Of a stretch of 64,000 bases of DNA, positions 9,590 to 44,717 are shown piece after piece. Source of the stretch: Lysobacterales bacterium (lineage in GTDB: Bacteria; Pseudomonadota; Gammaproteobacteria; Xanthomonadales; SZUA-5). How positions within the stretch are numbered: position 1 is the first letter of the stretch; the number at the start of each line of letters is the position of its first letter. The translations under genes and the position numbers were made by a program. The stretch covers positions 31,021 to 95,020 of the forward strand of contig JALHMG010000001.1 of assembly GCA_022844135.1 (NCBI GenBank), written 5' to 3'. The notes beneath the pieces are model-generated. The model was given only the letters and a program-made list of their open reading frames with translations, was not told the DNA's origin and did no database searches.

Positions 9590-9720
9590 GCGTAAGTTCC
9601 TTGCCTGGGCCCTCGATTGGCCGTCGGCGATAGCCACGGAGTATGCCGACGCAGCTGCCTAAGCAAAAGCGTTGCTCGTCGCTGCCATACTTGCAATTTC
9701 ATGGAATTGGATGCAGCAGC

Positions 9721-10191
9721 ATGATTCTGGCGAGTTACCGCATTGCGCCATCGCGCATTCCAGGCGCTGGACAGGGCGTGTTCCTGGACGAACGGGTTGC
9801 GGCGGGTCAGATCATCGTAGCTCCGGACGCAATTCCCCGCGTTTATCGCCTTGCCGACATCGAAACGCATCCCGATGCCGCTGAGTTGCTGCCAGCCACG
9901 GTGCGCTGGTTCGAGGAGTGGTACACCGCCACGCCCGAATGGCCGGACGAGTGTTACATCAACCATGCTTTCGAACCCACGGGACTTTGGCACTTGGGGT
10001 TCGTCTTCGCGCGTCGAGCGTTGGCAAGCGGCGAGGAGCTGACCGTCGACTATCGCCACTTGTTGGCGCCCGGACAGCGCGAAGCCTTCGACGACGCACT
10101 CAGCGGCGAACCGATCATCGGTTTGCCATGGAATGACAGCCTGCGGCAAACCAGCGCCGAGCTGCTCGCCCTGATGCAGGCGCGCCTATGA
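9721..10191 (+). CDS. SET-domain protein (putative protein-lysine methyltransferase)
   Basis: SRIPGAGQGVF, YINHAFEP, GEELTVDY SET motifs. Confidence 0.85.
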   Translation: MILASYRIAPSRIPGAGQGVFLDERVAAGQIIVAPDAIPRVYRLADIETHPDAAELLPATVRWFEEWYTATPEWPDECYINHAFEPTGLWHLGFVFARRALASGEELTVDYRHLLAPGQREAFDDALSGEPIIGLPWNDSLRQTSAELLALMQARL

Positions 10192-18326: not shown

Positions 18327-18800
18327 ATGCGTCGAAGTCTGCGTTTTGCCGTCATTGGTGCACTCGGTGCTTGGTTAGCTGGATGCGCCGTGTCGACGCC
18401 GATGCAATGGAAGGATGTGGCGAGCGATGTTCGGGTAGAGATCTCGTTGACCCACGCAATCCTCGATCCGCAAAAACGCACCGCTTTCGACGCCTACACC
18501 GATCAGATTCGATCGCAGCTGGGCAAGCAGCCTGGCCTTGTCGGTCACTCCGTGCGGCGCGAGCTTTTCGGCAACCAAGTTTGGACCTACACCGTCTGGG
18601 CGTCAGCCGCTGATCGACAAGCGTTCGTCAGCTCCGACCTGCACCTGCGCGCGATGCAGCAGGCCGCCCATGCCATCGTCGACATGCGCGTGAGGCGCTT
18701 TACGGTCAAGCGCAACGAAGCTCCGCAATCTTGGGGAGAGGTTCTGATCTGGTTGGATCGTCCGACTGGCGAGGATGCGCTGGACAGTGCGGGACCATGA
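18327..18800 (+). CDS. Lipoprotein with ABM/DUF3291-like dimeric alpha-beta barrel
   Basis: Lipobox LAGC; QPGLVGHS, WTYTVW…AFV.S..H..AM pattern. Confidence 0.65.
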   Translation: MRRSLRFAVIGALGAWLAGCAVSTPMQWKDVASDVRVEISLTHAILDPQKRTAFDAYTDQIRSQLGKQPGLVGHSVRRELFGNQVWTYTVWASAADRQAFVSSDLHLRAMQQAAHAIVDMRVRRFTVKRNEAPQSWGEVLIWLDRPTGEDALDSAGP

Positions 18801-19124
18801 GGCAAGGGTCACAGGCCCAGGCACAGGCAAGAGAATAACGCGCCATTGCCTCCGCACGCGGCAGACTGAACCGACGAGCATTGCCTGCCTCGTTCGACGG
18901 CGTATTTGCTGCAAACCTGCGGTAGACCTTGACTCAAGTGGGGCTTCTAAAGAAAAGCCGCCTCGCAGACCCTTTCATTCAGGCGACCGGATCCCGCTTC
19001 ATCAAGAACGCCAGTACCGCTGAGGTTGCAGACACTGTCGATTGCGTTGCAACTGCGCGGCGTCGCGACCCAGTTCCGCGCGCCGCGCGTGACAATGGCT
19101 TAGCTGAGGCAACAGGGGCGTTGA

Positions 19125-19322
19125 ATGGCCATCGTGCAGAACATCGCGGAGCGGCTGGAACAGGTGATGGAGGTGGTGCGCGAGCAGCACCTGGATGTAG
19201 AAACGGCGGCGCGGGAGTTTGGTTTCCCCTCGCTCGATGCGTTCTTTACGGCGTTCGACAAGCACTATGGCGTGCGCGTCGAAACCGTTTCGCTGAGCAG
19301 CGCCGATGGTGCGCAGCCATAG
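19125..19322 (+). CDS. 65-aa protein resembling a single AraC C-terminal HTH (copy 1)
   Basis: AGGGG RBS; DVETAAREFGFPSLDAFFTAFDKHYG matches the AraC second-HTH pattern. Confidence 0.6.
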   Translation: MAIVQNIAERLEQVMEVVREQHLDVETAAREFGFPSLDAFFTAFDKHYGVRVETVSLSSADGAQP

Positions 19323-19553
19323 CGTTTGCGGAAGACCTGAGAGAAGTAGGACAGGTTGTCGAACCCGCTGGCGTAAGCGACCTCAGACACGCTGCCGCGG
19401 CGCTCGCGGAGCAGCGCCTCGGCGCGCTGCAGGCGATGTTCGCGCAGGATTTCGCTGGGAGTTGCCTCAAGCGTTTGCTTGCAGCGGCGGAACAGGGTAG
19501 CGCGGTCCATGTGCAGCGCATGAGCCAGTTCGGCAACGCCGAAGGTTGGATCA
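19265..19553 (-). pseudogene. Duplicated 3' fragment (AraC domain only) of the hybrid sensor gene at 34350-38273
   Basis: Encodes the same C-terminus (…DPTFGVAELAHALHMDRATLFRR…TVSTRTP*) but is truncated at 19553, where the island begins. Confidence 0.9.
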
Positions 19554-19566
19554 TGAGGCAGTAGTT

Positions 19567-20142
19567 TTAGAGGTCATGATCAAGCTTTGCGCATATTGCA
19601 TGCAAAGCAATTAGGTGAGCCTCTTGGATAAAAGCCGTCCGATGTGATGATGCGACGAAGGTCACATCGCATAGACTGGGGAAGGACGTCTCATTATCGC
19701 CAGTAAACCCGAGGCGAGAAAGCCCGAGATCTCGCGCGGTTTCCAACGCACAGAGTACGTTGCGGGACTTCCCGGACGTCGAGAAGGCAAGCAGCAGGTC
19801 GCCAGGTCGAGCAAAGGTCGAGATCGAGCGAGCGAAGATTTGGTCAAAGCCAAAGTCATTCGACAATGCGGTCAATGCCACTCCGTCGGATCCAAGCGCA
19901 ATTGCTCGAAAGCCCGGCCGCGACGATTCAAATCGAACCGAAATTTCCGCCGCAAAATGCTGGGCCATGGCAAACGATCCGCCGTTTCCGCAGGTGAACA
20001 CCGTGCCTTGAGCTTGGATTGTCCTCTTAATAAGTGCACTCATTCGTACAAGGACGGGTGATGCGTTCAATAGGGTTCGACTTGATTCAACGCTTTGGCT
20101 TAGGTACTTATCAATAACTGAATCCACGACTATCTCCATCAT
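19567..20142 (-). CDS. gmhA: Phosphoheptose isomerase (SIS domain)
   Basis: CGNGGS..MAQHFAAE, SNDFGFDQIFAR, FSTSGKSRNV, IQEAH…H.IC. ATGA overlap with gmhB. Confidence 0.92.
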   Translation of the reverse strand: MMEIVVDSVIDKYLSQSVESSRTLLNASPVLVRMSALIKRTIQAQGTVFTCGNGGSFAMAQHFAAEISVRFESSRPGFRAIALGSDGVALTALSNDFGFDQIFARSISTFARPGDLLLAFSTSGKSRNVLCALETARDLGLSRLGFTGDNETSFPSLCDVTFVASSHRTAFIQEAHLIALHAICAKLDHDL

Positions 20143-20678
20143 ATTATCCCCGCTCTTGTCGAAAATATTGCTCGTCCGATAACATCGGATAAGTCGCTGC
20201 CTGGTGTGTACAAATACGAACCTATGCCTGCCGCAGTTCCCGCTGCGAGGTCGCAAGGCTTATCCCCCACGACAAAGCATTTCGAACGAACCACGAGGTC
20301 TGTCGGACAATGCCGTAAAATCATCCCAGGATTGGGTTTCCGGTCAGGGTGATTGGCAGATCGATATCGCAAGACCGAAGCATCAGGGTGGTAAGGACAG
20401 TACTCAAATCCGTGGATTACGGCTCCTTCGGAGAGCGCCAAACTGGCTAACGCCTGATGGAATGATTGAACTTCCAATTCTGAGCAGAAACCTCGTGCGA
20501 CAGCGGATTGATTACTTACCACAACGATACGCCATCCCTCTTGGTTGAGTCGCTGCAACGCTGCCAATGCTCCGGGCTGCCACTCAATGCGACTGGCGTC
20601 AAAACGGTACACCTGATCCACGATAAGTGTTCCGTCGCGGTCGAGAAACGCGACTGGCTGGGCGAACATGGGCGTCAT
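20139..20678 (-). CDS. gmhB: Heptose-1,7-bisphosphate phosphatase (HAD-IIIA)
   Basis: FLDRDGTL, VVSNQSAVARG, CPYHP, RKPNPGM, VGDKPCD..AG.AAG. Confidence 0.92.
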   Translation of the reverse strand: MTPMFAQPVAFLDRDGTLIVDQVYRFDASRIEWQPGALAALQRLNQEGWRIVVVSNQSAVARGFCSELEVQSFHQALASLALSEGAVIHGFEYCPYHPDASVLRYRSANHPDRKPNPGMILRHCPTDLVVRSKCFVVGDKPCDLAAGTAAGIGSYLYTPGSDLSDVIGRAIFSTRAGII

Positions 20679-20727
20679 TTGTTTTCGTAACTCTTCGAAC
20701 GCCAGTGGGCTTCTGTACCTATCATAC

Positions 20728-20952
20728 TGCTTTTCGCTGAGTTCCTTGGACCCGATGAATTGTGAGGAAACCATTGAGGAAGATGCCAAAGCGAAGCGAG
20801 TTGCCCGCGTCGAAGCGGGTCGAGGTGGCATTGGCGCTGTTGCGCAAGGAAGAGCCAGCGGCGCAGATAGCATGCTGGCACGGAATCAGCGAGCAGACGT
20901 CGTATCGCTGGAAGGACGAGTTAGTTGCTGGCGGCAATGCACGTATGGCCTG
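20728..20952 (+). mobile_element. Truncated, diverged IS3-family left end with partial orfA
   Basis: IRL TGCTTTTCGCTGAGTTCCTTGGACCCG (4 mismatches in 27 vs the neighbouring IS). orfA from 20783 (MPKRSELPASKRVEVALALLRKEEP…) breaks off after ~55 codons. Confidence 0.85.
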
Positions 20953-21012
20953 TGTCTTGCGCTGAGTCCCTTGGACCCGATGGAGTGTTAGTAAACCATC
21001 GAGGACAGGAAG

Positions 21013-21315
21013 ATGCCAAAGCAAAGCGAGTTGCCCGCGTCGAAGCGGGTCGAGGCGGTATTGGCGCTGTTGCGCAAGGAGGAGCCGGCGGTGCAGATTG
21101 CACGGCGCTACGAGATCAGCGAGCAAACGTTGTACCGGTGGAAGGACGAATTCATTGCCGGCGGTAGTGCGCGCATTGAGGGCAAGGATGGCGATTCGTC
21201 GCAGGCTAAAGAGGTAGGCCGCTTGCAGCGCGAGATCGAGACGCGCGAGCAGGTGATCGGTGAGCTGACGATCGCGAACCGCATCCCAAAAAAGCTCTCG
21301 GGCCCGTCCGTCTGA
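21013..21315 (+). CDS. IS3 transposase OrfA (HTH)
   Basis: VQIARRYEISEQTLYRWKDEF HTH, leucine-zipper-like tail, in-frame A AAA AAG heptamer. Confidence 0.9.
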   Translation: MPKQSELPASKRVEAVLALLRKEEPAVQIARRYEISEQTLYRWKDEFIAGGSARIEGKDGDSSQAKEVGRLQREIETREQVIGELTIANRIPKKLSGPSV

Positions 21316-22336
21316 CGCCGGAAGTGCGGGCCATGCTGGTTGAGGAGCAAAAGCAGGCGGCCAAGAAGGAGTCGGCAACGGCGCCACGCTGGAAAGCGGT
21401 GCTGCGAGCCGTGGGTATTCGATTGCCAATGCAATCGGACTTGCGCCGTCGAGCCGGTACCACAAGCCGCCGGAGACGACCAAGCGGCCTCGGCCAGCGC
21501 CCAAGCCCTTGGATGAGGCGCAGCGAGCGAAGGTGATCGAGTTCGCCGAGCGCTATCCGTGGTGGGGCTACAAACGCGTCGCCATCGTCATGCGGCGCGC
21601 TGGGATCGAGGTGAGCAAGAAGTTCGTGCGCGCGGTGTACAAGGCCGAGGGCTTGATGCAGAAGCGGCGGCCGAGCAAAGCGGAGCTGTATCAGAGCGCC
21701 AAGTTGTACGAGCTGCTGCCGACGCGCTGCAATGCGCTGTGGCAAGCGGACGTCACCTACATCCATATTCCCGGCCACGGCTGGTGGTACGCGGTGACGG
21801 TGATCGACTACTACAGCCGCTATCTGCTGGCCTGCCATCTGACCAGCAGCTTCTCGGCAGTCGAGGTCGGCGCCGGGATCGATTTGGCAATGAAGGAAGC
21901 CGAGCGCGTGCATGGGAAACTTGAGCGCATACCGTTCTTAGTGACCGACAATGGCAGCAGTTTTCTGGCGCGTCGATTCCAGGCGCAGATCAAAGACCGT
22001 TTCAAGCACGTCCGGACGCGCTACCGGACGCCCGAGCAGCTTGGGTTATTGGAGCGTTTTCATCAGACGCTCAAGCGCGAAGAGGTGTATTGGCAGCTCT
22101 ACGACAACCCGCAGGATGCACGAACCAAGCTAGATGCATTCCGCCAGCGATACAACGACATCCGGCCGCACTGGGCGCTGCAGCCGGCCATCGGGGGCGA
22201 CGTTGTGACGCCCGCCGACGTCTATGTTCGCAACGAAGCTATCGTGTTGCCGAAGTGGCAAGGATGGGCAAAGGCGGCAAAGAAAAAGCTTGACGATGCC
22301 ATGGCGCAGGATGCGCAGTTGAGGCAAGCCGCGTGA
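21288..22336 (+). pseudogene. IS3 transposase OrfB (DDE integrase core) with an extra frameshift near 21411-21437
   Basis: The -1 frame after the slippery site stops at 21536. The DDE part (WQADVTY…TVIDYYSR…TDNGSSF…LERFHQTLKRE) is in a third frame, entered at ~21437 (GLAPSSRYH). Confidence 0.8.
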
Positions 22337-22419
22337 ACCGGTGCGGTCTCACAAAAACCGGTTGGGCGGGTCCAAGGGAATTGGGAGGCAAGACATCAGG
22401 TCGGTTCCAAGCGCGGTGG

Positions 22420-22545
22420 TCACCGACACGGGCAGCGCGTTGATCGAGACTTTGTTCGGCAGAGCTGTGGCGAGAGGAGTGTCGTTGGCAAATCGCTCAG
22501 GACGACGTTTGAAAGCGACATCCAGAGCCGCCGCGCATGTTGACG
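22420..22545 (-). pseudogene. C-terminal remnant of another IS3-type transposase
   Basis: AAALDVAFKRRPERFANDTPLATALPNKVSIN resembles the recalled 'LDAAYAAHPERF…P.LP..VWIN' tail of some IS3-family transposases. Confidence 0.6.
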
Positions 22546-22695
22546 GCGATGGCAATATCAAACGCAGACTGCCAATGAACGCCTGCCTAAGGTCGGCGCC
22601 GGGAGGGTCACGGGAGCGAAGTAAGCGATGACTCTGTATAAGACGGGTTGCCCTGATTAACGTCAGTTACAATGGCTGCTTAAGGGAACCTTCAG

Positions 22696-23631
22696 TTGGA
22701 GCGAGCGAGGATTTGCGTGACATCTTTTCGGAGCAAGCCTTTTTTCGTTGTAGGTGATGTCATGTTGGACAGATTCGTTCATGGACAGGTGACGCGCCTG
22801 TCGCCCGAGGCGCCCGTCCCCGTCCTTACGGTCTCGGGGCACGAGGATGTTCCAGGTGGAAGTGCAAACGTTGCCGTCAACTGCCGCGCGCTGGGACGAG
22901 AAGTGAGGCTCTTCGGATTGGTAGGACAGGATGCAGAGGCCACAATTCTCACTGATGCCCTAGAGTCCAAAGGTATAAGAACGCGGCTCTTTCCAACCGC
23001 AGCACCGACCATCTTAAAAACCCGACTGATTGATGGAAGAAGGCACTTGTTTCGCTTTGATCTTGAGCAGCGCTTTGTTCCTGGCGATGCTGCTGCGCTT
23101 GCTCGGGCTGTCTTCGCTGAATTAAATGAGGCAGGCGCCGTGCTCCTGTCGGACTATGCCAAAGGAACCTTGGCTGAGCCGCAAGCATATATTCGCGCTG
23201 CCCGAAGCGCGGGATTGCGAATATGCGTTGATCCCAAACATGTGCCGTTTGATAGGTATTTCGGGGCACACGTTTTGACCCCCAATGCCATTGAGTTCGA
23301 AGCCGCGACAGGCACAATAGTGGGTGGTTCCGGCTTTAATGATATCGCAGCCGCTCTATGCGCATCGCTCTCTCTTGAGGCACTGCTTGTTAAAGCGGGC
23401 AATCGAGGTATGTACCTGATTCAACCATACAAGCCGGTTCGACACATCGAGGCGCGCCCGGTCGTCGCAGTCGACGTGACCGGTGCGGGTGATGTAGTCC
23501 TCGCGGTCCTGTCGGATGGCTTGGCACGCGGACTGAGCTACGAAGACGCCGCTGTGCGCGCAAATTCAGCAGGTGCCATATCGGTAACGCGCAGAGGAAC
23601 TGGGGTGGTGGCAAATCATGAACTTGACTAG
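22696..23631 (+). CDS. hldE: D-glycero-manno-heptose-7-phosphate kinase (HldE/RfaE domain I, PfkB fold)
   Basis: VGDVMLDRF..G…RLSPEAPVPV, PGGSANVA, TILKTR, SDYAKG, DPK, TPN..EF, DVTGAGD. TTG start uncertain. Confidence 0.92.
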   Translation: MERARICVTSFRSKPFFVVGDVMLDRFVHGQVTRLSPEAPVPVLTVSGHEDVPGGSANVAVNCRALGREVRLFGLVGQDAEATILTDALESKGIRTRLFPTAAPTILKTRLIDGRRHLFRFDLEQRFVPGDAAALARAVFAELNEAGAVLLSDYAKGTLAEPQAYIRAARSAGLRICVDPKHVPFDRYFGAHVLTPNAIEFEAATGTIVGGSGFNDIAAALCASLSLEALLVKAGNRGMYLIQPYKPVRHIEARPVVAVDVTGAGDVVLAVLSDGLARGLSYEDAAVRANSAGAISVTRRGTGVVANHELD

Positions 23632-24148
23632 CGCCGAAATCTTGCGAAACAAAGCTTTTAACGAGATTGAGATTGCCAGAAAAGCTGGAAAGCGGGTCGT
23701 CTTCACCAACGGTTGCTTCGATCTTTTGCACCCCGGTCATGTGAGAAACCTACAAGAAGCACGCTCGCTAGGCGACTGCTTGGTCGTCGGCTTAAATACT
23801 GACGAGTCCGTTGCTCGATTAAAGGGCAGTAATCGCCCTATTCTGCCCCTCAACGCCCGAATTGAGATCCTCTCCGCGCTTTCCTGCGTGAACTGGGTAA
23901 TACCTTTTGGCGATCAAGCTGACGACACGCCCAAGAAATTGATCAGCGAAATAATGCCACATGTTCTCGCGAAAGGTGGGGATTATGAGATGACAGAGAT
24001 TGTGGGCGCCGACACCGTGACTGCAGGCGGCGGTGAAGTAGTTCGTCTAACGTACCATCACGATTGGTCCACGACCAGCTTAATTCGCGCGATCAAATCC
24101 GGGAGCGCTATTCGGCGCGTTCTTCACCCAGCGGATTACGAGAGCTAA
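23618..24148 (+). CDS. hldE: Heptose-1-phosphate adenylyltransferase (HldE/RfaE domain II)
   Basis: VFTNGCFDLLHPGHV, VVGLNTDESVARLKG..RP, KGGDY, STT. Confidence 0.92.
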   Translation: MNLTSAEILRNKAFNEIEIARKAGKRVVFTNGCFDLLHPGHVRNLQEARSLGDCLVVGLNTDESVARLKGSNRPILPLNARIEILSALSCVNWVIPFGDQADDTPKKLISEIMPHVLAKGGDYEMTEIVGADTVTAGGGEVVRLTYHHDWSTTSLIRAIKSGSAIRRVLHPADYES

Positions 24149-25139
24149 TAATGCGATTCAGAGGGTAATACAATTTTCGTGTCGGATATCCTTCCTTATC
24201 CACACACTTGGCACAAAGCGGAATACCACTTAGCGAATGGCTCGCGTGCGCACCCCTGAATCGGCGCAAATTCTCGCTATTCCAAATTTCACGCAAAGAC
24301 TGGTTATTTACGTTTCCGAGTACTTGTTTGCCGTCATAATCGAAGCAACAGGGTACGACACGCCCATCCCACAGCACAGTTAAGGATGTCCACGGTTTGT
24401 CGCAAACAAAATCAGGCGGCTGAATCTCATGAACCCGCAGCGATTTTATCCGTTCGTTTGTATTATCCCACGCTACATAACGCTTGACCTTCACTCTGTC
24501 AATGCCTGGCCAATTCTTCCACTTACGCAACCAATCATTCACTTCGTGGCGGTTCTCTCCCTGCTCAACGATTTGTAGGATGACTCGAGGCCGGGATCTA
24601 CCCGCCTCGGCCTTGTAATCCAGGAGCTTCCTCAACCTTGATTCGGCTAATTCGAGATTGCCGGCGGCACGCCCGCGCACTCGCTCATTGGTCGCCGCCG
24701 TCACGCCATCGAGAGAAAGAACTAGCTCTTCGAGTCCGCTATCTACCAAAGAAGCAATCCGATGATCAGTAAGGAGTATCGGATTAGCGGATAGAAATCC
24801 CTTGACCCCAGACTGGGAAGCATAATTCAGGATTCTTGCGATATCCGGATGAAGCAAGCTGTCTCCGAAATGATGAAGCAGGACGGATCGAGTCGAATAT
24901 CGAGCTTCGTCGATGATCTTCTTGAAGACATCGAATTCCATGAATCCCAATGGTCGCGTCATCTGATTGGTGCGGGGGCACATCTCGCAAGTCATTGGGC
25001 AGTGATTTGTCAACTCGATCTGGAAGACTACTGGGTAACCTCCAGGCTCGATGCGCTGCCAGTTGTAATAGAACTGAAGAACCTCCGCGTTCACCCATTT
25101 GGCGAACGTGTCAAAGAATCGCGCATCCACTAGTCCCAC
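24108..25139 (-). CDS. Radical SAM enzyme with SPASM/twitch domain
   Basis: ELTNHCPMTCEMCPR (CxxxCxxC); CDKPW…WDGRVVPCCFD…LGN…W…CAKC. Confidence 0.92.
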   Translation of the reverse strand: MGLVDARFFDTFAKWVNAEVLQFYYNWQRIEPGGYPVVFQIELTNHCPMTCEMCPRTNQMTRPLGFMEFDVFKKIIDEARYSTRSVLLHHFGDSLLHPDIARILNYASQSGVKGFLSANPILLTDHRIASLVDSGLEELVLSLDGVTAATNERVRGRAAGNLELAESRLRKLLDYKAEAGRSRPRVILQIVEQGENRHEVNDWLRKWKNWPGIDRVKVKRYVAWDNTNERIKSLRVHEIQPPDFVCDKPWTSLTVLWDGRVVPCCFDYDGKQVLGNVNNQSLREIWNSENLRRFRGAHASHSLSGIPLCAKCVDKEGYPTRKLYYPLNRIISSRNPLGEERAE

Positions 25140-25993
25140 TCCCCCTCTGCGTTCCTCAGCAGATTACCACCGACGCCAGCAATAGAGCACGAAACCAGCG
25201 TAAGGCGCTTAGCCTCGTACATCGCTACGGTTGCTGCGACACCAGCATTTAGAGATTCAAGTCCCAGGTGGCCTCCCGGAATACTTACTAGTTCGCTGCA
25301 GTGCTTTCGTGTCCTTTGTCGCAAACCTTCCCCCTCGGCTCCAATGACAAATGCCAGCTTCTCATGGGATACAAGATCCGGAAGTATTCTGCTGCCTCTC
25401 TCATCCAGCCCGACCACATGGTATCCGATGTCCCGAAGTGTCTCGATGGCTAATACAAGATTAGCAACGCAGTAAAATTCAATTAACTCGGCGCCGCCGA
25501 CGGCGTACCTGACTACTTCTGCAGTAGGTGTCGCCGCTCGATGTCGCATATATATTATCGCATCAAATCCGAAAAAGGCCGCTGATCGAATTATTGTTGC
25601 CAAATTCTGAGGGTTCGAAACCTGATCCAGCAACAGGACTGATTTTGCGTTAACAAGATCTTGCAAGTCCCTCTCAACGCCTATAATCCGCGGATTGGCA
25701 AAGCAGAAGATGCCTTGGTGGTTGTCTTCGCCAACGAGTTGTCCAGCCCTCCTGAACTCTGGCCATGAAAGAAAAGCCACAGGTATATTGTGCCGCTGAG
25801 CAAGGGAAATCGCTTCTTGATGGTAGTCGGGCTTGCCCGCGAGCACGAGCTTTAGGACGTCGCCAGGACGCATCATCAGAGCGGCACGAACCGAATGCTT
25901 ACCATAAATTTTTTCTTTTCCACTACGTTCCGAATCGGTATCGGCCCCAGGCACGGAGTTCGCGTCGGTTCGCGGCTGAAACTGCTTGCGCAT
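25130..25993 (-). CDS. TrmH/SpoU-family RNA 2'-O-methyltransferase, RlmB-like
   Basis: IYGKHSV, LDQVSNPQNLATIIRSA, IGAEGEGLRQRTRKHCSELVSIP, ESLNAGVA. Confidence 0.88.
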   Translation of the reverse strand: MRKQFQPRTDANSVPGADTDSERSGKEKIYGKHSVRAALMMRPGDVLKLVLAGKPDYHQEAISLAQRHNIPVAFLSWPEFRRAGQLVGEDNHQGIFCFANPRIIGVERDLQDLVNAKSVLLLDQVSNPQNLATIIRSAAFFGFDAIIYMRHRAATPTAEVVRYAVGGAELIEFYCVANLVLAIETLRDIGYHVVGLDERGSRILPDLVSHEKLAFVIGAEGEGLRQRTRKHCSELVSIPGGHLGLESLNAGVAATVAMYEAKRLTLVSCSIAGVGGNLLRNAEGEWD

Positions 25994-26191
25994 GACTGTA
26001 TGCTTCTCAAAGTTTGCACTACGATGCCGAAAAGGACGAGCCGCCAAAGCGGTGAGAATTTCTCTTCTAACGTTCGTCGGGTGAACTGCTTAGCCTACTG
26101 CAACATCCGCATCGCCGCAAGGGCTGGATGCGAGTTGAGCAGACTAGGCCAAGAGAAATCCCTCCGATAATGTATCTCGACGTTTTCAACA

Positions 26192-27565: not shown

Positions 27566-27592
27566 CACGATCTCGGCGAAGAACAGCTGATA

Positions 27593-28525
27593 CTAAAGGG
27601 ATTCGAGAAAGCGCAGGAGATTCGGCATGTGTTCGCCCCAGGCAATGACACTGGGATCATGCCGCACGCACGGTTTGGCACTAGCTTCGGCCAGTGCGCC
27701 AATGAAGGCAATTGTGTCCTCTGGCGTCGTGACCACATTCGGTAGGCCGAGAATGTGGCTGTGTTGGAGTTTGTTTACAACAACCATTTGAGTGCCTGAG
27801 GCATATTGATCAGATACCACTCCGCTGGCATAGGGCGACGATGGTGCGGCGGTCCAACACCAAAGCAGATCGCATGCTCGAAGGCGGTCAAAACGGTCTC
27901 GATTGCTCCATTGCGAGTACGCAAGATGAAGTCGACTGGGATATAAGGCTGCTATCGAGGCTAATTCTTCGAGCACGCCCGGGGAGGGTTGCTTCCATGG
28001 GCTCAAGACTAGGTAGATTGCGACGGCGGGGATCTGATGGAGGATTGCCTCACTGATTCTCGGGTATTCGCGTTCATATCTGAGAAACCCGTTCGTTCCA
28101 ATTAGAAATCTGTCCAAGGGTAATCCAAACTGGGTGCGTAATCTCCTTCGCGTCGTGTTTTCCGAAAAAGTCTCTGACGGATGAGGGAACCAATGACCGC
28201 GCTTTGCGCCTTCAATGAGCGAGGGTACCATAGCCACTATCGCAGCAACGGAGTCGTAAAGCGCCCTCGCATCATCGGAGTGTGGCATTAGTACAACGGG
28301 TTGCCGACAATCCATAATAAAATCATGTGCACTGTTTATTGGTAATACTTCCCCATGGTAATGAAGAAAAACGATATCGGCGCGGTCGGCGCGGAGTTCT
28401 GCACTACATTTCACTTTCGCACCAGCGCGGCGAAGTGCTGTCGCCATTCGTTTAGAGAAATAACCGATGCCACAACGATCATTTAGAGTGGTAGCGATCT
28501 GGAGTATGTGTAGGGGACGACGCAT
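27593..28525 (-). CDS. Glycosyltransferase-like protein (GT-B/GT4-like)
   Basis: N-terminal HILQI…CGIGYF…A.ALR and central IGTNGFLRYER. Last gene of the six-gene operon. Confidence 0.6.
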   Translation of the reverse strand: MRRPLHILQIATTLNDRCGIGYFSKRMATALRRAGAKVKCSAELRADRADIVFLHYHGEVLPINSAHDFIMDCRQPVVLMPHSDDARALYDSVAAIVAMVPSLIEGAKRGHWFPHPSETFSENTTRRRLRTQFGLPLDRFLIGTNGFLRYEREYPRISEAILHQIPAVAIYLVLSPWKQPSPGVLEELASIAALYPSRLHLAYSQWSNRDRFDRLRACDLLWCWTAAPSSPYASGVVSDQYASGTQMVVVNKLQHSHILGLPNVVTTPEDTIAFIGALAEASAKPCVRHDPSVIAWGEHMPNLLRFLESL

Positions 28526-28540
28526 GGGAATGGTGAATAG

Positions 28541-29353
28541 TTACGTTTCGTTGAAGGGATTGCATGGTCTGCCTTTTGCGTCGCGGACTGTCAGTTCGTG
28601 AGCAATCGGCGTAACACTAACTTCACGACGCCTCCAAAAAACGTCCAGGTCCGATCCACTGGCGATCTGGTCGGAAGTGTAGTTGGAGGCGAATGTGTAA
28701 CGATCGGAACTTGTTTTCGCGCTGCTGTTTTTCAACTGGAGACGATAAGGGTCCAGTCGACTTTGTTCGCACAAGCGCCATTCTGTACGCATTTCAACGC
28801 AGCTTGGAATGTTGATGTTGAGGCATGACACGTTTGGATTTAATCCCCTTAAGGCCAACCGCGCCAATTGGGAGGTCACTGTCATCGCGGGCTTCCAAAC
28901 CTCAGGATCAAAGGTCTTGCCGAAGTGCGAGTCATCTTCTTCCATGCTTACTGCCATACTAGGCACTCCGTGGCTGCCTGCCTGGGCGGCCGCTGCTATA
29001 GTTCCGCTTAAGTGTACGGTGTACCCAAGGTTCTCGCCGGCGTTTATCCCACTTATACATAGATCTGGTGGCTTCGAAACAAGTTCCAGAAGTGCAATGC
29101 TAATAACTTGCGATGGGGCTCCGGCGATGGTGTAACCTTTAACCATCCCTTCTGATAGATGAAAATTGTGGGGCGAAACATTGCCGATGTCGGGTCCGCG
29201 AAGGAAGGCGCGTGACATGCATGTCTGATTAACACGTGGGCAAACAACCAACACCTCGCCAAGTGTTTGAGCTACTTCAATCGCGGCGCGAAGGCCAAAC
29301 GAATCTGGACCGTCGTCGTTGGTTACGAGGATGTAGGGTGGTCTAGTTGACAT
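28541..29353 (-). CDS. surE: SurE-family 5'/3'-nucleotidase
   Basis: ILVTNDDG, SGINAGENLG…SGTIAAA, NINIP, VSVTPI. Confidence 0.9.
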   Translation of the reverse strand: MSTRPPYILVTNDDGPDSFGLRAAIEVAQTLGEVLVVCPRVNQTCMSRAFLRGPDIGNVSPHNFHLSEGMVKGYTIAGAPSQVISIALLELVSKPPDLCISGINAGENLGYTVHLSGTIAAAAQAGSHGVPSMAVSMEEDDSHFGKTFDPEVWKPAMTVTSQLARLALRGLNPNVSCLNINIPSCVEMRTEWRLCEQSRLDPYRLQLKNSSAKTSSDRYTFASNYTSDQIASGSDLDVFWRRREVSVTPIAHELTVRDAKGRPCNPFNET

Positions 29354-30353
29354 GATTCGCGTTCTGGTTTTGGGATGTGGCTTTAGCGAATGCGTTAACG
29401 ACGTCCTTGGTCGTGATCGCTTCTAAGCCTGGATCGATGGTCTCGCCGTATGGGTTGTGTTCTTGTCCTTTCCAGATCGTGATGTGTTCGGTGCAGGTTT
29501 TAGGTGGCCCCCAACAACCGGGCGAGACAGGACCGAACAGTGTCACCGCGCTCGTTCGGGTTGCCGTTGCTAAGTGCGCGACACCACTGTCAACAGACAG
29601 AACGAGTCCAGCGGCGGCGACGCGATGAAGCAAGTCGCAAGCCGTCGTATTGAGTGAAACGCTGGTAACGTCGACTCCCGCTTGGTTGGCAATCGTGAGA
29701 GCACGATCTCGCTCCCGCAGCGTGCCTGTTAGCTGCAACTTCCATCCCATGGCCTGGACTTTTCTTGCCACCTCCGTCCAACGATCTTGCGGCCAAAGGC
29801 GAGCCGGGCTTCCGGCGCCAGCGTGCAGAATTACGGGTGCATTTCTGTCCAGAGGACGCGGAGTACGCAGAAAGAGGTCGTTGGCGTCGAGATCGATACC
29901 CAAAAGGCCAAGCAGGCGAGCCCATCGGGAGAAAATGTGATCGGCAAAATCAAGGAACGGAGCACTTGATGTTTCGGGTATCGCGGGGTGACGGTAGCTC
30001 AATATTTGACTCGGTCGGAGTGCTCGGAGCAAGGGCAACAGCTCATGACCGGGAGTCCTTAGGGAAACGATTAGCTCAACCCTTTCTTTCAGCTCCAATA
30101 CGGAAGCCAGTACATTTGAATCAGCGGCTCGGTGATCTGTGGGACCAATTGTGTCTGGATTCGAGCGATCGGAGAGGATTAAGTCGCACAGATTCAAATA
30201 TCCAGCAAGATCCTTGAGCCACGACGGGCACGTCATTATTATCTTCTGGGTTGGGTAGGTTCGACGCAAAGCGCGCATTGCGGGAATCCCCGTCATCAGG
30301 TCGCCGAGCCCATTGTGTCGTAAAACCAAGATAGCGCCCTTTCGGCCCATCAT
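29343..30353 (-). CDS. Glycosyltransferase family 9 (heptosyltransferase-like)
   Basis: LVLRHNGLGDLMTGIPAMRALRR, LHAGAG…RLWP..RW, VDSGVAHLA.A…TLFGP. Confidence 0.88.
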   Translation of the reverse strand: MMGRKGAILVLRHNGLGDLMTGIPAMRALRRTYPTQKIIMTCPSWLKDLAGYLNLCDLILSDRSNPDTIGPTDHRAADSNVLASVLELKERVELIVSLRTPGHELLPLLRALRPSQILSYRHPAIPETSSAPFLDFADHIFSRWARLLGLLGIDLDANDLFLRTPRPLDRNAPVILHAGAGSPARLWPQDRWTEVARKVQAMGWKLQLTGTLRERDRALTIANQAGVDVTSVSLNTTACDLLHRVAAAGLVLSVDSGVAHLATATRTSAVTLFGPVSPGCWGPPKTCTEHITIWKGQEHNPYGETIDPGLEAITTKDVVNAFAKATSQNQNANHVN

Positions 30354-30354
30354 G

Positions 30355-31473
30355 CTAGTCACTCAGCCTCGATTTGTAGGGCGCCAAACATGCTTGGCGA
30401 ATGATTTGTGCAACCTGATGGGCTCCTCGGCCAGAGTTATGACTGACAGTCCTGCGCACGTGTCCAGCCATTTGTAACGGGGATAGTCCAGAGCGTAAAG
30501 ACTCCGTTATTTCGGCCCGCTTGGCAGGATCCTTGCGAGCCTCCGCCAAAGCGCTGTAGATTGCATTCACTACCTTTTCCTCACCTGCAGGTCGTAACGC
30601 TTCTATCATTCCGGTCGACAGCACGCTATCCGGCCAATTGAGTGCGGAGCACTCGGGATCCACAAACAGGCGCGTATTTAGGATCTGACTCAGATTTTGT
30701 GGCGGCAACAAGATGGACGGCAAGCCTATTTGCATTGCTTGGAAGATAGTCGTGCTGCCCGGTGAGGTGAGTAGAAGGTCACAAGTCCTTAGCAACTGCT
30801 CAAAGACATGACCGCTCTGCACACCGACGACAACGTCATTTCCGAAGCGCTGCCGTATATTGCTTAACCAGTCGGACCCGATGTTGCCGCATACGCCAGC
30901 GATGGAAACCGAAGCCGCCTCAAGCGCGCCAAGCACGCCAGGCAAGACAAGATCGACATAGTCCAGAGTTCCACAAAGGTGGCTATGCACACCTCCCACG
31001 TTCACTACAACTCCGGCGCCGCCTGTGCGACGCCTCGGCTGCGGAACGATAGGCTCCACCCAACAAAAGTCGCGTCTATTTCGAAGGCACGAGGCTAGTG
31101 GCAAAATCTCGTCCGGGTATCGCTGTGCGCAATAACATACCGTGGCGTTAGGCAACGGGACCTCATTTCCATTAGCCCACAGGTACGGCAAACTATCAAC
31201 ATAAACAACAGGTATTCCAAGCGATCCGAGGTAATTCGCTCGTTCTGGGTCGTTAATCACGAGCGCCGCGTTCGCGTCAGCAAGGGGCGCATCAACAAAC
31301 TCGTGATTGAAGTCGTCGAGCGCTAGTATTTGTGTCGACATCGGCGGCGGTTCATGAAGTATGATCCGGTGCGGTGGGAGGTGCTTGAGAATTAAGCGAA
31401 GTTTGCCCAGACTGCCCCAGCCGAAGTGACAAGCAGAAACTACCAGCATCGCGCTGTTGCGTGTTGAACCCAT
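30355..31473 (-). CDS. blsD: Cytosylglucuronate (CGA) synthase-like glycosyltransferase (BlsD/MilC-like)
   Basis: N-terminal FGWGSLGKL motif as recalled for CGA synthases; YVDSLPYLW, VVNVGG, SPGSTT, LPPQNLSQ. Operonic with the BlsE-like gene and an aminotransferase. Confidence 0.65.
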   Translation of the reverse strand: MGSTRNSAMLVVSACHFGWGSLGKLRLILKHLPPHRIILHEPPPMSTQILALDDFNHEFVDAPLADANAALVINDPERANYLGSLGIPVVYVDSLPYLWANGNEVPLPNATVCYCAQRYPDEILPLASCLRNRRDFCWVEPIVPQPRRRTGGAGVVVNVGGVHSHLCGTLDYVDLVLPGVLGALEAASVSIAGVCGNIGSDWLSNIRQRFGNDVVVGVQSGHVFEQLLRTCDLLLTSPGSTTIFQAMQIGLPSILLPPQNLSQILNTRLFVDPECSALNWPDSVLSTGMIEALRPAGEEKVVNAIYSALAEARKDPAKRAEITESLRSGLSPLQMAGHVRRTVSHNSGRGAHQVAQIIRQACLAPYKSRLSD

Positions 31474-31477
31474 GGAA

Positions 31478-32722
31478 TTAATCTCGTGTCCCGGCGAAGT
31501 GTCGCCACACCTTCAGTGTTCCTTCGCAGCTCATCTCGGCCTCTTGCATCGGAAGCCAGGGCCCTGTTTCCAATTCAAAAAGCCGTGAGTGGGCGTCGCG
31601 CGCCACAGGACAATCATCTGCGGTCATCGCTGCCGAATTTTTGCGGAGATAACTGGTTAGCCAGTCTATTCGAAACAAAGGCCGATGCGGGATGCGGCAG
31701 CTTATATTTTCGGCGGAAATCGCCTTTACCAAATCGTCGCGTATTGATCGCGCGCCATCAGGGACAAGAACAGGGCATTTAAAGTAGACACTCTCGCCCC
31801 ATTCCGGTTCTTTGATCGTCAGAAGCCCATGACTCAAGAAAGATCGACCATAATACCGGCCGGCGTTCTGGCGATCCGAGATCTCTTCCGTCAGTCTGGA
31901 TAATCCATCCAGACCGATTATTGCTGGGAATTCTGCCATTCGGCAACTGAAACCTAATCTCTCATAGTCGTCCCAGTCGGGGCCTTTGCCGTAGTTAGAC
32001 AAAGTCCGTAATGTGTTGTAACGTGAATGGTCGGCGCAGATAACCATTCCGCCCTCACCACAAGAAATATGCTTTCGTACTGAAAATGCGAAAGCGGCGT
32101 AGTCGCCAAACGTGCCTACCCTGCGTCGTCGTACTGTGGCGCCAAACGCTTGCGCACAGTCTTCGATCAAAGTGAGGCCTTCGGTTGAGCACAACGTTGA
32201 AATACTGTCCATATCTGCAGGATAGCCCCAGAAATGAACCACCAAGACGGCTTTGGTGCGCGGACTAATTAGTTCGCGCGCCCGAGTCGCCGACATGGTT
32301 AACGATTGAGGTTCAACATCGCAGATCACGGGTATGGCGTTGTTTTGCACGATAGCGGAAGCTGCCGCTACGAAGCAAAACGCAGGTACAATCACCTCGT
32401 CCCCCGGGCCGATACCTGCCGCTGAGAGCGCTAAGCTCAGCGCTGACGTCCCAGAATTCACGGAGACCCCGCGGATGTCCGCTCCGAAAAATGCAGCGAA
32501 TTCGGTTTCGAATCTACGTGCCCATGGCCCTGAGTAATACAAGGACAGGAGACCAGAATCCATCATTTCAAGAACCCGGGCCCGAGCAGTCGTGGATATG
32601 CGGACTCCTGTGGGCAAAGGCAGCTGGCGAGTTGGCGTACCACCGAATATTGCCAGCGGATTCTGGTTTGTTTTGCGCATACCATTAGGCATTGGTGATT
32701 TCCGAAATTTCAATATTCCCAT
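31478..32722 (-). CDS. DegT/DnrJ/EryC1/StrS PLP aminotransferase (BlsH-like by context)
   Basis: NSGTSAL, PAFCF.A, VHFWG, IEDCAQAFG, FSVRKHISCGEGG (PLP lysine). Confidence 0.92.
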   Translation of the reverse strand: MGILKFRKSPMPNGMRKTNQNPLAIFGGTPTRQLPLPTGVRISTTARARVLEMMDSGLLSLYYSGPWARRFETEFAAFFGADIRGVSVNSGTSALSLALSAAGIGPGDEVIVPAFCFVAAASAIVQNNAIPVICDVEPQSLTMSATRARELISPRTKAVLVVHFWGYPADMDSISTLCSTEGLTLIEDCAQAFGATVRRRRVGTFGDYAAFAFSVRKHISCGEGGMVICADHSRYNTLRTLSNYGKGPDWDDYERLGFSCRMAEFPAIIGLDGLSRLTEEISDRQNAGRYYGRSFLSHGLLTIKEPEWGESVYFKCPVLVPDGARSIRDDLVKAISAENISCRIPHRPLFRIDWLTSYLRKNSAAMTADDCPVARDAHSRLFELETGPWLPMQEAEMSCEGTLKVWRHFAGTRD

Positions 32723-33684
32723 GGGTCAACATTTCCCACATCATCAATCCGATTGCTGTAGGCGGCCGCTGTCGTGGAACAGCCTTTGCAGGTTCGATGT
32801 CCGTCGGTACGGTAATAGCGAACATGCTCATTCCATTCTGAATTGGTCAGCGACCACGTGTCATCGTTCTGGACGACAGCGCCGTCGGTTGCGTCTTCAC
32901 CAGTTCGATGCGGAAGCAAACTGCAGCCAAAAGCCTTTTTGATTTTTGGGTCTATATATATAACATTCCCGACGACATTACAGAGGCTGCCGGTGGGTTT
33001 CGGACATACTCCAGCGTCGAAGAACAAATCCTGGGCTGAGCGGCTCTCGCCGTAAAAGCGCAGACCCATTGGAACCAAGAGGCCTGGCTCAGTGTGATAA
33101 AGGCGGTCGCACGAATCAATCACAGCTTGCCGATCAGGATAGACGATTGGGCGGTCAAGCTTTAACGCGGTTAGCTCCCATTGATTGATTCCCACATCGG
33201 TGAAGAGTTTTTGTAATTCGAGCATATCTTGATAGTTGTGAGGTCCAACCACAGTATTTACTCGCGTGCGGATGCCTAGTTCTTTAGCCTTGCTGATCCC
33301 GTCGATACAACGGTCGAATAGGCCCGGAAATCCTCTTATTTTGTCGTGATTATCCCGTGTGCCGTCAATGCTGACAACGATCTGATCCAGGCCGCTGGCG
33401 GATAGTTCTGAAATTTTGGTTGGTAAGGAAGCTCCGTTTGTAATTATGGAGCTCTTCAATTCGAATTGCTTTATAATCCTCACGAATTCTGAGATTTCCA
33501 GGTGCAAAAGTGGCTCTCCACCTGTCAGACGAACGTACTCGACCCCAACTCCTTTGGCCTTGTCTAGTATCGCGAACAAATCACTCTTACTAAATCTATA
33601 TTGATCCTTGGAGCGAGCAAAGACGCACATGAAGCAATCTGCGTTACATGCCTCCAGGATTCGTATGAACAAGTACTTTTTCAT
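32710..33684 (-). CDS. blsE: Radical SAM cytosylglucuronate dehydratase/decarboxylase (BlsE/MilG-like)
   Basis: YLFIRILEACNADCFMC.FA.S.D.YRF and YVRLTGGEPL.H match recalled BlsE N-termini closely; C-terminal Cys for an auxiliary cluster. Confidence 0.78.
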   Translation of the reverse strand: MKKYLFIRILEACNADCFMCVFARSKDQYRFSKSDLFAILDKAKGVGVEYVRLTGGEPLLHLEISEFVRIIKQFELKSSIITNGASLPTKISELSASGLDQIVVSIDGTRDNHDKIRGFPGLFDRCIDGISKAKELGIRTRVNTVVGPHNYQDMLELQKLFTDVGINQWELTALKLDRPIVYPDRQAVIDSCDRLYHTEPGLLVPMGLRFYGESRSAQDLFFDAGVCPKPTGSLCNVVGNVIYIDPKIKKAFGCSLLPHRTGEDATDGAVVQNDDTWSLTNSEWNEHVRYYRTDGHRTCKGCSTTAAAYSNRIDDVGNVDPWEY

Positions 33685-34200
33685 TATTTCCCGACTTCTG
33701 AGCATTGGTGTAGTTGGCAAATTGCTAATCGACTTGCTCAGATGATCTGAAAGGCTGAGCGATGTTTCTTCGTTTCCATGGTCTGATCGAGTTCTGGCGA
33801 GAGCTTGCGTTGCGATTCGCGCTTACGCTTAGATGAGCACTTGAGCTGCACCGAATGCTCGCTCAATCGGAAGCGTTTTCGCTATCTGGGAATTCTCGCA
33901 AATTCTGACTTTGGCTTTCTGCTTAGCTGACCGGCGCCGTCCTGGGGTTGAGACCTCAATGGAGGCCACTTTCTACGCTGGGCATCGGTCAGTTGCACTT
34001 GGCTAGGTGCGGGGGATGTCTGGTACGAGTCGTGTCTGGCGCGCATCGATGTGCCGAGCTTCTTGTTCTACCTGCGATCCACTGATGCGACGCAGTGCTG
34101 TTATCGTCGTTGGGAACGTCTTCGACCGCGTTGCAAAAACTGAAGATTGGCAACCAACGCCGTATTGCGCGCGCGACAATTCGTCAGTGGTGGTTCGGAA

Positions 34201-34638
34201 GGGCGTTGAATGGCCATCGTGCAGAACATTGCGGAGCGGCTGGAACAGGTGATGGAGGTGGTGCGCGAGCAGCACCTGGATGTAGAAACGGCGGCGCGGG
34301 AGTTTGGTTTCCCCTCGCTCGATGCGTTCTTTACGGCGTTCGACAAGCACTATGGCGTGCGCGTCGAAACCGTTTCGCTGAGCAGCGCCGATGGTGCGCA
34401 GCCATAGCGTTTGCGGAAGACCTGAGAGAAGTAGGACAGGTTGTCGAACCCGCTGGCGTAAGCGACCTCAGACACGCTGCCGCGGCGCTCGCGGAGCAGC
34501 GCCTCGGCGCGCTGCAGGCGATGTTCGCGCAGGATTTCGCTGGGAGTTGCTTCAAGCGTTTGCTTGCAGCGGCGGAACAGGGTAGCGCGGTCCATGTGCA
34601 GCGCATGAGCCAGTTCGGCAACGCCGAAGGTTGGATCA
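34201..34638. repeat. 438-bp direct repeat, copy 2 (right boundary of island)
   Basis: Matches 19116-19553 with 2 mismatches; lies within the intact hybrid sensor gene's 3' end. Confidence 0.97.
34210..34407 (+). CDS. 65-aa mini AraC-type HTH protein (copy 2)
   Basis: Protein identical to 19125-19322; overlaps the sensor gene's 3' end convergently by 58 nt. Confidence 0.6.
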   Translation: MAIVQNIAERLEQVMEVVREQHLDVETAAREFGFPSLDAFFTAFDKHYGVRVETVSLSSADGAQP

Positions 34639-44658: not shown

Positions 44659-44717
44659 GCCGCCGACGCCAACAAACACCGCGTTCGCACACAGCAAAAC
44701 TGAACTGCGAATGCCGG

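Follow-up and report, generated by a model that had tools for sequence, protein, structure and literature searches.

The low-GC island in the window (the whole 64-kb stretch of DNA analysed here) is bracketed by a direct 438-bp duplication of a host gene end, and it was probably installed by Campbell-type, single-crossover homologous integration, with a circular intermediate and a dependence on RecA that we infer. Two features expected of this type of event were present: the insert was flanked by direct repeats that duplicate the target segment, and relatives possessed an empty site in which one copy of that segment is joined to both flanks. The features of the locus are collected in Table 1.

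Table 1. Features of the island, its flanking repeats and the adjoining host gene (window coordinates)
Feature	Coordinates	Strand	Basis or remarks
Left repeat copy	19116-19553		Adjoins native left flank; displaced sensor 3' fragment 19265-19553 (-) and complete mini-AraC ORF; alleles C (19145), C (19466)
Mini-AraC ORF, 65 aa, second HTH only	19125-19322; second copy 34210-34407	+	Pfam HTH_18 at positions 32-73
Island, 14,647 bp, low GC	19554-34200		GC about 0.49-0.56 versus about 0.62 in flanks; absent from relatives
gmhA-like (19567-20256) and gmhB-like (20139-about 20675)	19567-20675	-	Pfam, NCBIfam
Solo left-end fragment of related IS	20732-20946	+	83% identical to 20957-21176
Passenger IS3-family element	20949-22400	+	orfA 21013-21315, orfB/rve 21509-22336 (Pfam); terminal inverted repeats at about 20949 and 22400
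Split HldE: heptose-7-P kinase (22696-23631), heptose-1-P adenylyltransferase (23618-24148)	22696-24148	+	NCBIfam TIGR02198, TIGR02199
rSAM-SPASM enzyme	24108-25139	-	Profile matches
RlmB-like 23S rRNA 2'-O-methyltransferase	25130-26047	-	Profile matches
Pentapeptide-repeat membrane protein	26192-27565	+	Profile matches
Core operon: unknown protein, SurE-like, GT9, CGA-synthase-like, DegT aminotransferase, BlsE-like radical SAM decarboxylase	27593-33720	-	Profile matches; gene order kept in L016, L022, L107
Non-coding, AT-richer island end, upstream of core operon	33721-34200		Six-frame Pfam scan, tblastn
Diverged host-flank homologue	34100-34199		48/100 identical to flank 19016-19115; register shifted by 1 nt (offset 15,084)
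Right repeat copy	34201-34638		Runs into intact sensor gene; alleles T (34230), T (34551)
Hybrid sensor HK-RR-AraC, 1307 aa, intact	34350-38273	-	Pfam: propeller, HisKA, HATPase, receiver, AraC HTH; last 96 codons within repeat

Geometry and content of the repeats

The two repeats were each 438 bp long, were spaced 15,085 bp apart and were identical at 436 of 438 positions, the mismatches being 19145 C versus 34230 T and 19466 C versus 34551 T; both allele changes in the right copy are synonymous. Both repeat ends were sharp, as evidenced by the fact that identity just outside them (in the same register) was at the background level of 20-27%. Each copy contained the whole mini-AraC ORF together with the last 96 codons of the sensor gene, which encode its AraC HTH domain, and reached 149 bp past the sensor stop codon. 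The initial annotation had described these repeats, their content (an AraC-encoding gene end plus a small ORF, here found to match HTH_18) and the status of the right copy as part of an intact gene and of the left as a fragment, and all of this was confirmed: only the right copy continues into the 1307-aa sensor. The insertion lies at the end of a gene rather than at a terminus site.

The mini-AraC ORF is convergent with the sensor gene and overlaps its end by 58 nt. It was called as a gene in relatives by gene callers; it differed from its counterpart in the metagenome contig L111 at 4 nt, all at third codon positions and leaving the amino acids unchanged, and from that in the metagenome contig L103 at six positions, five of them third positions. 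The sensor orthologue in relatives (P0121) was 97% identical and of equal length, and a distant homologue (P0128) came from a Xanthomonadales MAG. A search of genome contigs with the sensor, dominated by generic peptide patterns, returned only distant histidine kinases (28-40% identity).

Empty sites in relatives

Three sets of ~96%-identical relatives (an isolate run and the metagenome contigs L103 and L111) had an island-less site with one repeat copy. Contigs in runs X7 (the isolate) and X4 skipped exactly 15,085 bp, the unit formed by the island plus one repeat copy, and both L103 (150 kb) and L111 aligned gap-free to the left flank, the repeat and the sensor, with the sensor, mini-ORF, ABM and DUF2141 genes directly consecutive. 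The left copy of the present genome matched L103 from the left through 19553, and divergence began at 19554. As to whether island-less relatives carry both copies, a check proposed in the initial annotation, they carried exactly one in the X7 and X4 contigs and in L103 and L111; this outcome favoured the proposal. The other genomes retrieved, at 66-72% identity, were not close enough for the locus to be recognised.

Gene content of the island

GC content fell from ~62% to ~52% between 19.5 and 34.0 kb, which confirmed that the insert is foreign; with the island, a complete antibiotic-like pathway has clearly been acquired recently and by this strain specifically. Judged from its predicted gene products, it is a putative nucleoside-antibiotic-like cluster in which BlsE-like, CGA-synthase-like and DegT genes are combined with ADP-heptose genes. 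Every ORF-sized stretch of the island (ORFs of at least 95 aa) was assigned either to biosynthesis or to an IS. The gmhA stop codon lay 13 nt from the left repeat. The related syntenic clusters L016, L022 and L107 stopped at the same point, beside unrelated DNA (an rve fragment in L107), and no AraC-like or repeat-like DNA was found at either end of these three clusters. In related clusters a BlsM-like Nuc_deoxyrib_tr gene precedes the core operon; no relic of it was found by tblastn in 33600-34700. The IS3-family element sits between the divergent gmhB and hldE operons and was missing in L016, L022 and L107, where the gap between the PfkB and HAD genes was 47 nt.

The statement of the initial annotation that no recombinase lies between the repeats held in part. 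Neither a tyrosine nor a serine recombinase was present among island ORFs of at least 95 aa, and a six-frame Pfam scan of the 480-bp non-coding island end revealed no recombinase relic; an IS3-family DDE transposase is nevertheless present inside the island. No tRNA or tmRNA was found in the 64-kb window, and the island proteins included no replication, partition or transfer functions and no conjugation or mobilisation functions (relaxase, T4SS, oriT). Because replication and transfer genes were lacking, a 15-kb circle could not persist as a replicon. The locus therefore did not show the attributes of an integrase-type island, ICE or IME, having no recombinase, no tRNA or tmRNA, a 438-bp repeat instead of a short att core, and no conjugation genes.

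Composite transposons are recognised by the IS that stands at each end and by a target duplication of just 2-14 bp. A composite transposon or IS-mediated insertion was rejected here, as the island has a single internal IS and a solo end fragment, none at its ends, and the duplication measures 438 bp. A tRNA-targeting island was also rejected, the window being without tRNA.

A diverged relic of the host flank

The segment directly preceding the right copy resembled the DNA preceding the left copy (Table 1). It ranked first among the non-self matches when about 128,000 windows of the two strands were compared (next best, 46), with a positional statistic of about 1e-4 after correction and 51% identity when aligned by MAFFT. 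The relic was visible only by position-fixed comparison, local alignment of the DNA outside the repeat ends being no better than shuffles. Fusing it to the mini-ORF left the HTH_18 match unextended, so the relic is not recognisable as coding.

Because a 48%-identical flank relic stands before the right copy, the island brought its own homology; the relic indicates that the island has probably long carried homology to this locus. It also argues against a fresh target duplication. To account for the rise in identity from 48% to 99.5% at 34200/34201, further events have to be assumed, namely conversion or several rounds of excision and integration. The proposal of the initial annotation, homology-driven single-crossover integration of a circular DNA, was partly supported: the homology-driven mode gained support from the allele pattern, the configuration of contig L112 (see below) and the absence of integrase, tRNA and replication genes, and the history, given the old relic, is more complex than a single recent event.

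Allele markers and support for the junctions

All empty-site sequences carried C..C at the two variable sites, as did the left, displaced copy, and the gene-joined right copy carried T..T. This is the pattern expected if an incoming copy were to rebuild the gene end, although the two differences could be two later mutations. This genome differed from L103 at seven positions, all of them common to both repeat copies, which places the origin of the incoming copy in the same sub-lineage.

The integrated left junction was found in a separate assembly, possibly of the same sample as runs X1 and X2. The 1,156-bp contig L112, from a JGI metagenome, was the same as window 18780-19935 except for T at 19466; it spans 336 nt of flank, the entire left copy and 382 nt of island, carries the alleles C..T and supports this junction. 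The Logan contigs of X1 and X2 likewise had C..T in the left copy. The C..T and C..C left copies could be the outcome of differing crossover points, and gene conversion gives the same left copy; the allele test rests on two markers, of which the metagenome offered the left copy only. Over the shared stretches of 320 and 87 bp, chimeric joining is conceivable for the Logan contigs (k=31) and perhaps also for L112. The right junction (34200/34201) was crossed by this genome's own assembly only, the X1 and X2 Logan contigs having no coverage at 33964-34183.

Mode of integration

The proposed sequence of events begins with a circular, 15,085-bp form of the island that would carry its own copy of the 438-bp segment, which would have come from a very close relative already carrying the island. 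Host enzymes would then carry out a reciprocal single crossover between this copy and the chromosomal segment (the mini-AraC gene and the sensor 3' end), so that the segment would be duplicated, the host's original copy would become the displaced left fragment, and the sensor would stay intact because the incoming copy restores its end. The crossover in this genome would have fallen within the last 87 bp of the segment, giving C..C on the left and T..T on the right, and in the metagenome population, of the same lineage, a crossover between the marker sites or gene conversion between the copies would give C..T on the left. A length of 438 bp far exceeds the minimal length required by RecA. Through the same repeats the island may, we infer, also be lost or amplified at present.

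A site-specific island whose integrase has been lost or acts in trans, with the repeat as an unusually long attL/attR bearing a substitute target-gene 3' end, would likewise place the insert at a gene 3' end, let the incoming T..T copy rebuild that end and put the inferred crossover on the gene-internal side of the repeat, within its final 87 bp; moreover, the H47 island is recombinase-less yet mobile by host functions (PMC3191183, PMC5426353). We nevertheless regard such an origin as unlikely: no integrase gene or relic was present in the island or its 480-bp end, the repeat runs 149 bp past the stop codon and, with 99.5% identity along 438 bp, exceeds known core sites by far in length, and the C..T alleles of L112 would put the exchange between the two markers, off any single core. 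Equally sharp ends on both sides, with the gmhA end 13 nt from the junction, would result from linear foreign DNA, acquired for example by transformation, that became linked to the chromosome at two points separated by 438 bp, duplicating the target in one step and with no circle; this could involve sister chromosomes, staggered breaks or homology-facilitated illegitimate recombination anchored in the mini-AraC region. Such a route agrees with the related clusters ending at the same point beside unrelated DNA, as if cut there (the rve fragment in L107), with the two repeat copies being each other's closest relatives, and with the weak flank homology, which could have been the anchor. It remains improbable in our judgement, as a fresh duplication should leave two identical copies: the right copy would then have gained both differences afterwards, each by a synonymous mutation, the C..T of L112 would need an additional recombination event anyway, and a rare two-chromatid event would be required.

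The genome is a 75-contig draft, no independent sequence covered the right junction, and k-mer links over a 320-bp shared stretch are insecure. Where a repeat can be entered at two points and left at two, a simple loop arises, through which some assemblers pass once; the site could then in truth be empty, with the 15,085-bp unit existing as a circle of its own that shares the 438 bp and whose loop was threaded into the chromosome. We consider an artefact of this kind very unlikely, given that genes for replication, partition or transfer are missing from the island, that the X1 word depth of its pieces (about 1-4) was not above that of the flanks (about 3-5), that distinct alleles were kept in the two copies, and that L112 joins flank to island through the whole left copy. 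Insertion-duplication cloning also yields an insert between duplicated homology arms with the target gene intact. That the locus is a suicide-vector single-crossover integrant made in the laboratory is, however, almost inconceivable: there was no vector origin, marker or oriT, the genes were all biosynthetic or IS-related, the island bears a host-type IS and an IS scar, and the same junction occurred in environmental metagenomes. The construct is effectively refuted by the gene content, which includes no backbone, and by the metagenome contigs.

Relation to known systems

Campbell-type integration of circular DNA is familiar from Hfr formation via shared IS copies and from suicide-plasmid insertion-duplication. 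As in such integrants, the shared segment here is directly duplicated around the insert, a single copy occupies the empty site, the duplicated 3' end preserves the target gene, marker alleles may have been reshuffled between the copies, and the event would be reversible and amplifiable via the repeats. It differs from those examples in being a natural chromosomal island with no plasmid backbone, in having a host gene end rather than an IS as the shared segment, and in that the circle is putative. Phage 21 and e14 integrate in the 3' end of icd and supply a substitute end, using a tyrosine integrase and a short core. The island similarly supplies the target 3' end and leaves the host's original end as a fragment at the far side, but it has no integrase, and its exchanges are probably not confined to one point. 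Streptomyces has amplifiable units of DNA and biosynthetic clusters with direct repeats on either side; the present cluster is likewise bracketed by direct repeats that permit deletion or tandem amplification, although the host is a proteobacterium, probably of the Xanthomonadales to judge by the sensor homologue P0128, and amplification is here a prediction.

The H47 genomic island of E. coli (microcin H47) is a 13-kb island for antibiotic production with extensive direct repeats and no recombinase of its own, which relies on the host for excision and integration and yields hybrid excision junctions; its repeats are imperfect, and exchange takes place in short segments of identity independently of RecA (PMC3191183, PMC5426353). 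Long direct repeats, the lack of an own recombinase (the passenger IS3 transposase aside) and an antibiotic-like cargo are shared with our island, whereas the repeats here, 438 bp long and with 99.5% identity, include portions of two host genes. For near-perfect repeats, RecA-dependent exchange is the simpler expectation.

Implications

The island may, though this is a doubtful proposition, be a self-homing biosynthetic episome that has, as its sole integration module, a regulatory locus of the host in portable form (the mini-AraC gene and the AraC DNA-binding end of the sensor) and that spreads among related bacteria by recombining there. If so, each integration would put the cluster beside the sensor and add, downstream of gmhA, one more mini-AraC gene together with a free AraC-HTH fragment, and this fragment could modulate the sensor regulon or the expression of the cluster. 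Most genomic-island finders seek integrases, tRNA genes and short att repeats; if island-borne homology suffices to install, remove or amplify an island, a class of mobile biosynthetic DNA escapes recombinase-centred searches. Given the 438-bp repeats, the island is predicted to be unstable, with loss by looping out at a measurable rate, and to be open to amplification, which is relevant to studying or over-producing its product. The two synonymous sites, together with the empty-site alleles, constitute a natural marker system with which crossover positions may be read in populations.

Repeat structure and the unoccupied site

Direct repeats at window positions 19116-19553 and 34201-34638, spaced 15,085 bp apart, flank the island, and a base-by-base comparison found them identical at 436 of 438 positions, with C at 19145 against T at 34230 and C at 19466 against T at 34551. 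Just beyond both repeat ends, identity in the same register drops to 20-27%, and GC content falls from ~62% outside to ~49-56% between the copies. The sensor gene continues from the right copy only, the left copy being a displaced fragment, and both allele differences are synonymous (Ile ATC/ATT in the 65-aa mini-AraC ORF, Glu GAG/GAA in the sensor). The degree of identity and the ORF content confirmed what the initial annotation had described, namely 438-bp direct repeats holding the sensor 3' end and a small ORF, the right copy lying in the intact gene.

The mini-AraC ORF, which retains the second HTH only, behaves like a real gene; in comparisons with relatives, 4 of 4 and 5 of 6 nucleotide differences fell at the third position of a codon and altered 0 and 1 amino acids. 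Its counterpart in another genus (contig L005, 1067-1678) is a convergent 203-aa ORF with a full HTH_18 domain. The left junction joins an A of the island to a TG of the repeat and so forms an ATG, the start of a 102-aa out-of-frame ORF (19246-19554, minus strand). An 81-aa ORF in the sensor frame (19265-19510, minus strand) has an internal Met start and takes in the greater part of the AraC HTH. It follows gmhA, which is on that strand too, at a distance of 57 nt, and the JGI metagenome contig L112 has a gene call for it; its product could be a free DNA-binding fragment.

Features of the repeats, the sensor gene and the island cargo
Feature	Position	Strand	Description
Mini-AraC ORF	19125-19322 and 34210-34407	+	65 aa, complete; matches second half of AraC-type HTH_18
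Sensor 3' end	within each repeat copy	- (opposite mini-AraC ORF)	last 96 codons = whole AraC DNA-binding domain
Hybrid sensor	34350-38273	-	1307 aa; HisKA, HATPase, receiver, AraC HTH
gmhA-like	19567-20256	-	
gmhB-like	20139-about 20675	-	
HldE	22696-23631	+	heptose-7-P kinase domain
HldE	23618-24148	+	adenylyltransferase domain
Radical SAM/SPASM enzyme	24108-25139	-	
RlmB-like	25130-26047	-	23S rRNA 2'-O-methyltransferase
Pentapeptide-repeat membrane protein	26192-27565	+	
Core operon	27593-33720	-	six genes

Assembled contigs with an empty site were located through the sensor orthologue P0121 (97% identical). In two sequencing runs ~96% identical to the window, X7 from an isolate and X4 from a biofilm metagenome, contigs skip exactly 15,085 bp and read from the flank through one repeat copy into the sensor. 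L103 is an ENA contig of 150 kb on which the 65-aa ORF comes straight after the sensor and precedes the ABM, DUF2141 and short-chain dehydrogenase genes that make up the left flank in the window; in a three-way alignment this contig tracks the left copy with its flank as far as 19553, and tracks the right copy onward from 34201. L111 provides a further empty site. For the initial annotation, two copies in island-free relatives would have refuted its interpretation; X7, X4, L103 and L111 each carry a single copy only. Relatives also carry, beside the repeat, a 206-bp intergenic element with long G-rich/C-rich inverted arms (L103 reverse complement 9543-9748) that this genome lacks between window 19008 and 19013; several metagenome contigs (L104-L106) are interrupted at this point, so the element is probably repetitive and MITE/REP-like.

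Allele patterns and probable mode of integration

At the two variable repeat sites, all four empty-site sequences read C..C, as does the displaced left copy of this genome, while the copy that completes the sensor gene reads T..T. This arrangement would result if a C..C host and a T..T incoming copy had undergone one crossover within the final 87 bp of the segment. All seven differences from L103 are common to both copies, so the incoming copy came from a very close relative, which presumably already bore the island at this locus. L112, like the Logan contigs of X1 and X2 (an activated-carbon metagenome), has a left copy that reads C..T, and X2 has an additional lineage-specific contig whose second site is C. 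A C..T left copy would be expected if a crossover fell between the two markers, or if the right copy had converted the left one; by crossover or conversion alike, the repeat copies would appear to exchange sequence in this lineage.

The best-supported reading, which we consider reasonably probable, is that a circular form of 15,085 bp integrated through homology, in the Campbell manner. The island has the architecture of insertion-duplication (Campbell) integrants, and the single crossover proposed in the initial annotation is partly supported by the one-copy empty sites and the allele pattern; its right junction (34200/34201), uncovered in X1 and X2, is known from this assembly alone. The assembly is a draft of 75 contigs, and the shared 438-bp segment could have allowed the assembler to thread a free circle into the chromosome, an artefact we judge very unlikely. 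Against it, the island is without means of replication, the word depth of the 100%-identical island pieces in X1 and X2 is not above that of the flanks (~1-4 and ~3-5, respectively), and L112, matching window 18780-19935 with one mismatch, joins 336 nt of native flank to the entire left copy and 382 nt of island. A laboratory construct, a negligible prospect, was excluded by the gene content and the metagenome contigs.

Prophages that bring a replacement end for their target gene, phage 21 at icd being an example, share with the island an intact gene and a displaced fragment, but they use an integrase. A site-specific recombinase that has been lost or acts in trans is an unlikely agent here. 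No tyrosine or serine recombinase was found among the island ORFs (Pfam, NCBIfam), no recombinase relic in the 480-bp non-coding island end, no tRNA in the whole 64-kb window, and no replication, partition or transfer genes in the island. The earlier statement that no recombinase lies between the repeats thus holds for integrases, but not strictly, since a single IS3-family element (orfA and rve-domain orfB, inverted ends at ~20949 and ~22400) is present. It occupies the promoter gap of two divergent operons, a gap of only 47 nt in related clusters, and is therefore a passenger. Beside it, within 20732-21176, a solo left-end fragment (20732-20946) shares 83% identity with the corresponding end of the complete element; it is the scar of an earlier, related insertion, implying that the island resided for a while in hosts that carry IS elements.

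Insertion of linear DNA in one step, duplicating a 438-bp target, is likewise improbable, and a fresh event of this kind is argued against by a flank relic, if real. The 100-nt stretches that precede the left and right copies are 48% identical (offset 15,084, a 1-nt shift) against a background of 25 ± 4.4%, the best non-self match among ~128,000 100-nt windows on both strands (next best 46), with a significance of ~1e-4 after correction for the various offsets and window lengths; because standard local alignment does not score it, the match is only suggestive. Its divergence is similar to that of the same region in another genus (46%). If real, it is an old homologue of the host flank, by now diverged, at the end of the island, and it argues that the island has long carried homology to this locus, the 438 bp having since been replaced, on this account, by host-like sequence through repeated crossovers or conversion.

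Under Campbell-type integration, excision and tandem amplification via the repeats would follow, as predicted from established recombination biology. The nearest documented natural analogue is the H47 genomic island of E. coli, a 13-kb island for antibiotic production that is flanked by extensive direct repeats and encodes no recombinase, its repeats being imperfect and its excision RecA-independent, at short identity segments (PMC3191183, PMC5426353); the H47 repeats thus differ from the near-identical (436/438) copies found here. The locus would represent a clean example, from nature, of an island inserted without a recombinase and equipped with its own markers of crossover position, and its cluster would escape integrase-based island finders.

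Island gene content

Every sizeable island ORF was assigned with Pfam and NCBIfam. The core operon encodes an unknown protein, a SurE-like protein, a GT9 glycosyltransferase, a CGA-synthase-like protein (TIGR04467, 207.8 bits, below the cut-off of 300), a DegT aminotransferase and a BlsE-like radical SAM decarboxylase (TIGR04466, 386.6 bits, below the cut-off of 400). The last is ~50% identical to Streptomyces cytosylglucuronate decarboxylases, and its closest relatives (61-62% identity) lie on metagenome contigs with the same genes in the same order, which marks the cargo as a conserved nucleoside-antibiotic-like cluster with a heptose branch. It combines a blasticidin/mildiomycin-type core (CGA-synthase-like, BlsE-like radical SAM, DegT) with a complete ADP-heptose branch (gmhA, gmhB, split hldE, GT9). 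The extra RlmB-like 23S rRNA methyltransferase and the pentapeptide-repeat membrane protein are also part of the cargo in this high-GC proteobacterial host, which probably belongs to the Xanthomonadales.

The nearest clusters (~60% amino-acid identity, same gene order) were found only on metagenome contigs L016, L022 and L107, and include Nuc_deoxyrib_tr, EF-P and Methyltransf_21 genes missing from the island. On L107 a truncated rve (IS3-type) transposase (472-1047) lies 57 nt past gmhA, where the contigs stop. The related cluster's boundary just past gmhA is thus the same as the island's, but IS-associated rather than formed by a host-gene repeat.

Other strain-specific differences

Relative to L103, the window contains a 2.1-kb insertion (44659-46808) within a polysaccharide gene region, with a predicted PIN/VapC-like ORF (44718-45170, minus strand) and a 390-aa ORF (45492-46664, plus strand) predicted from sequence alone to encode an AAA-type ATPase. 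Leftward, synteny with the 96%-identical L103 ends at window 14798, past which L103 carries amidohydrolase, isochorismatase, AraC and MFS genes that the window lacks there; the region left of 14798 is probably another strain-specific replacement.
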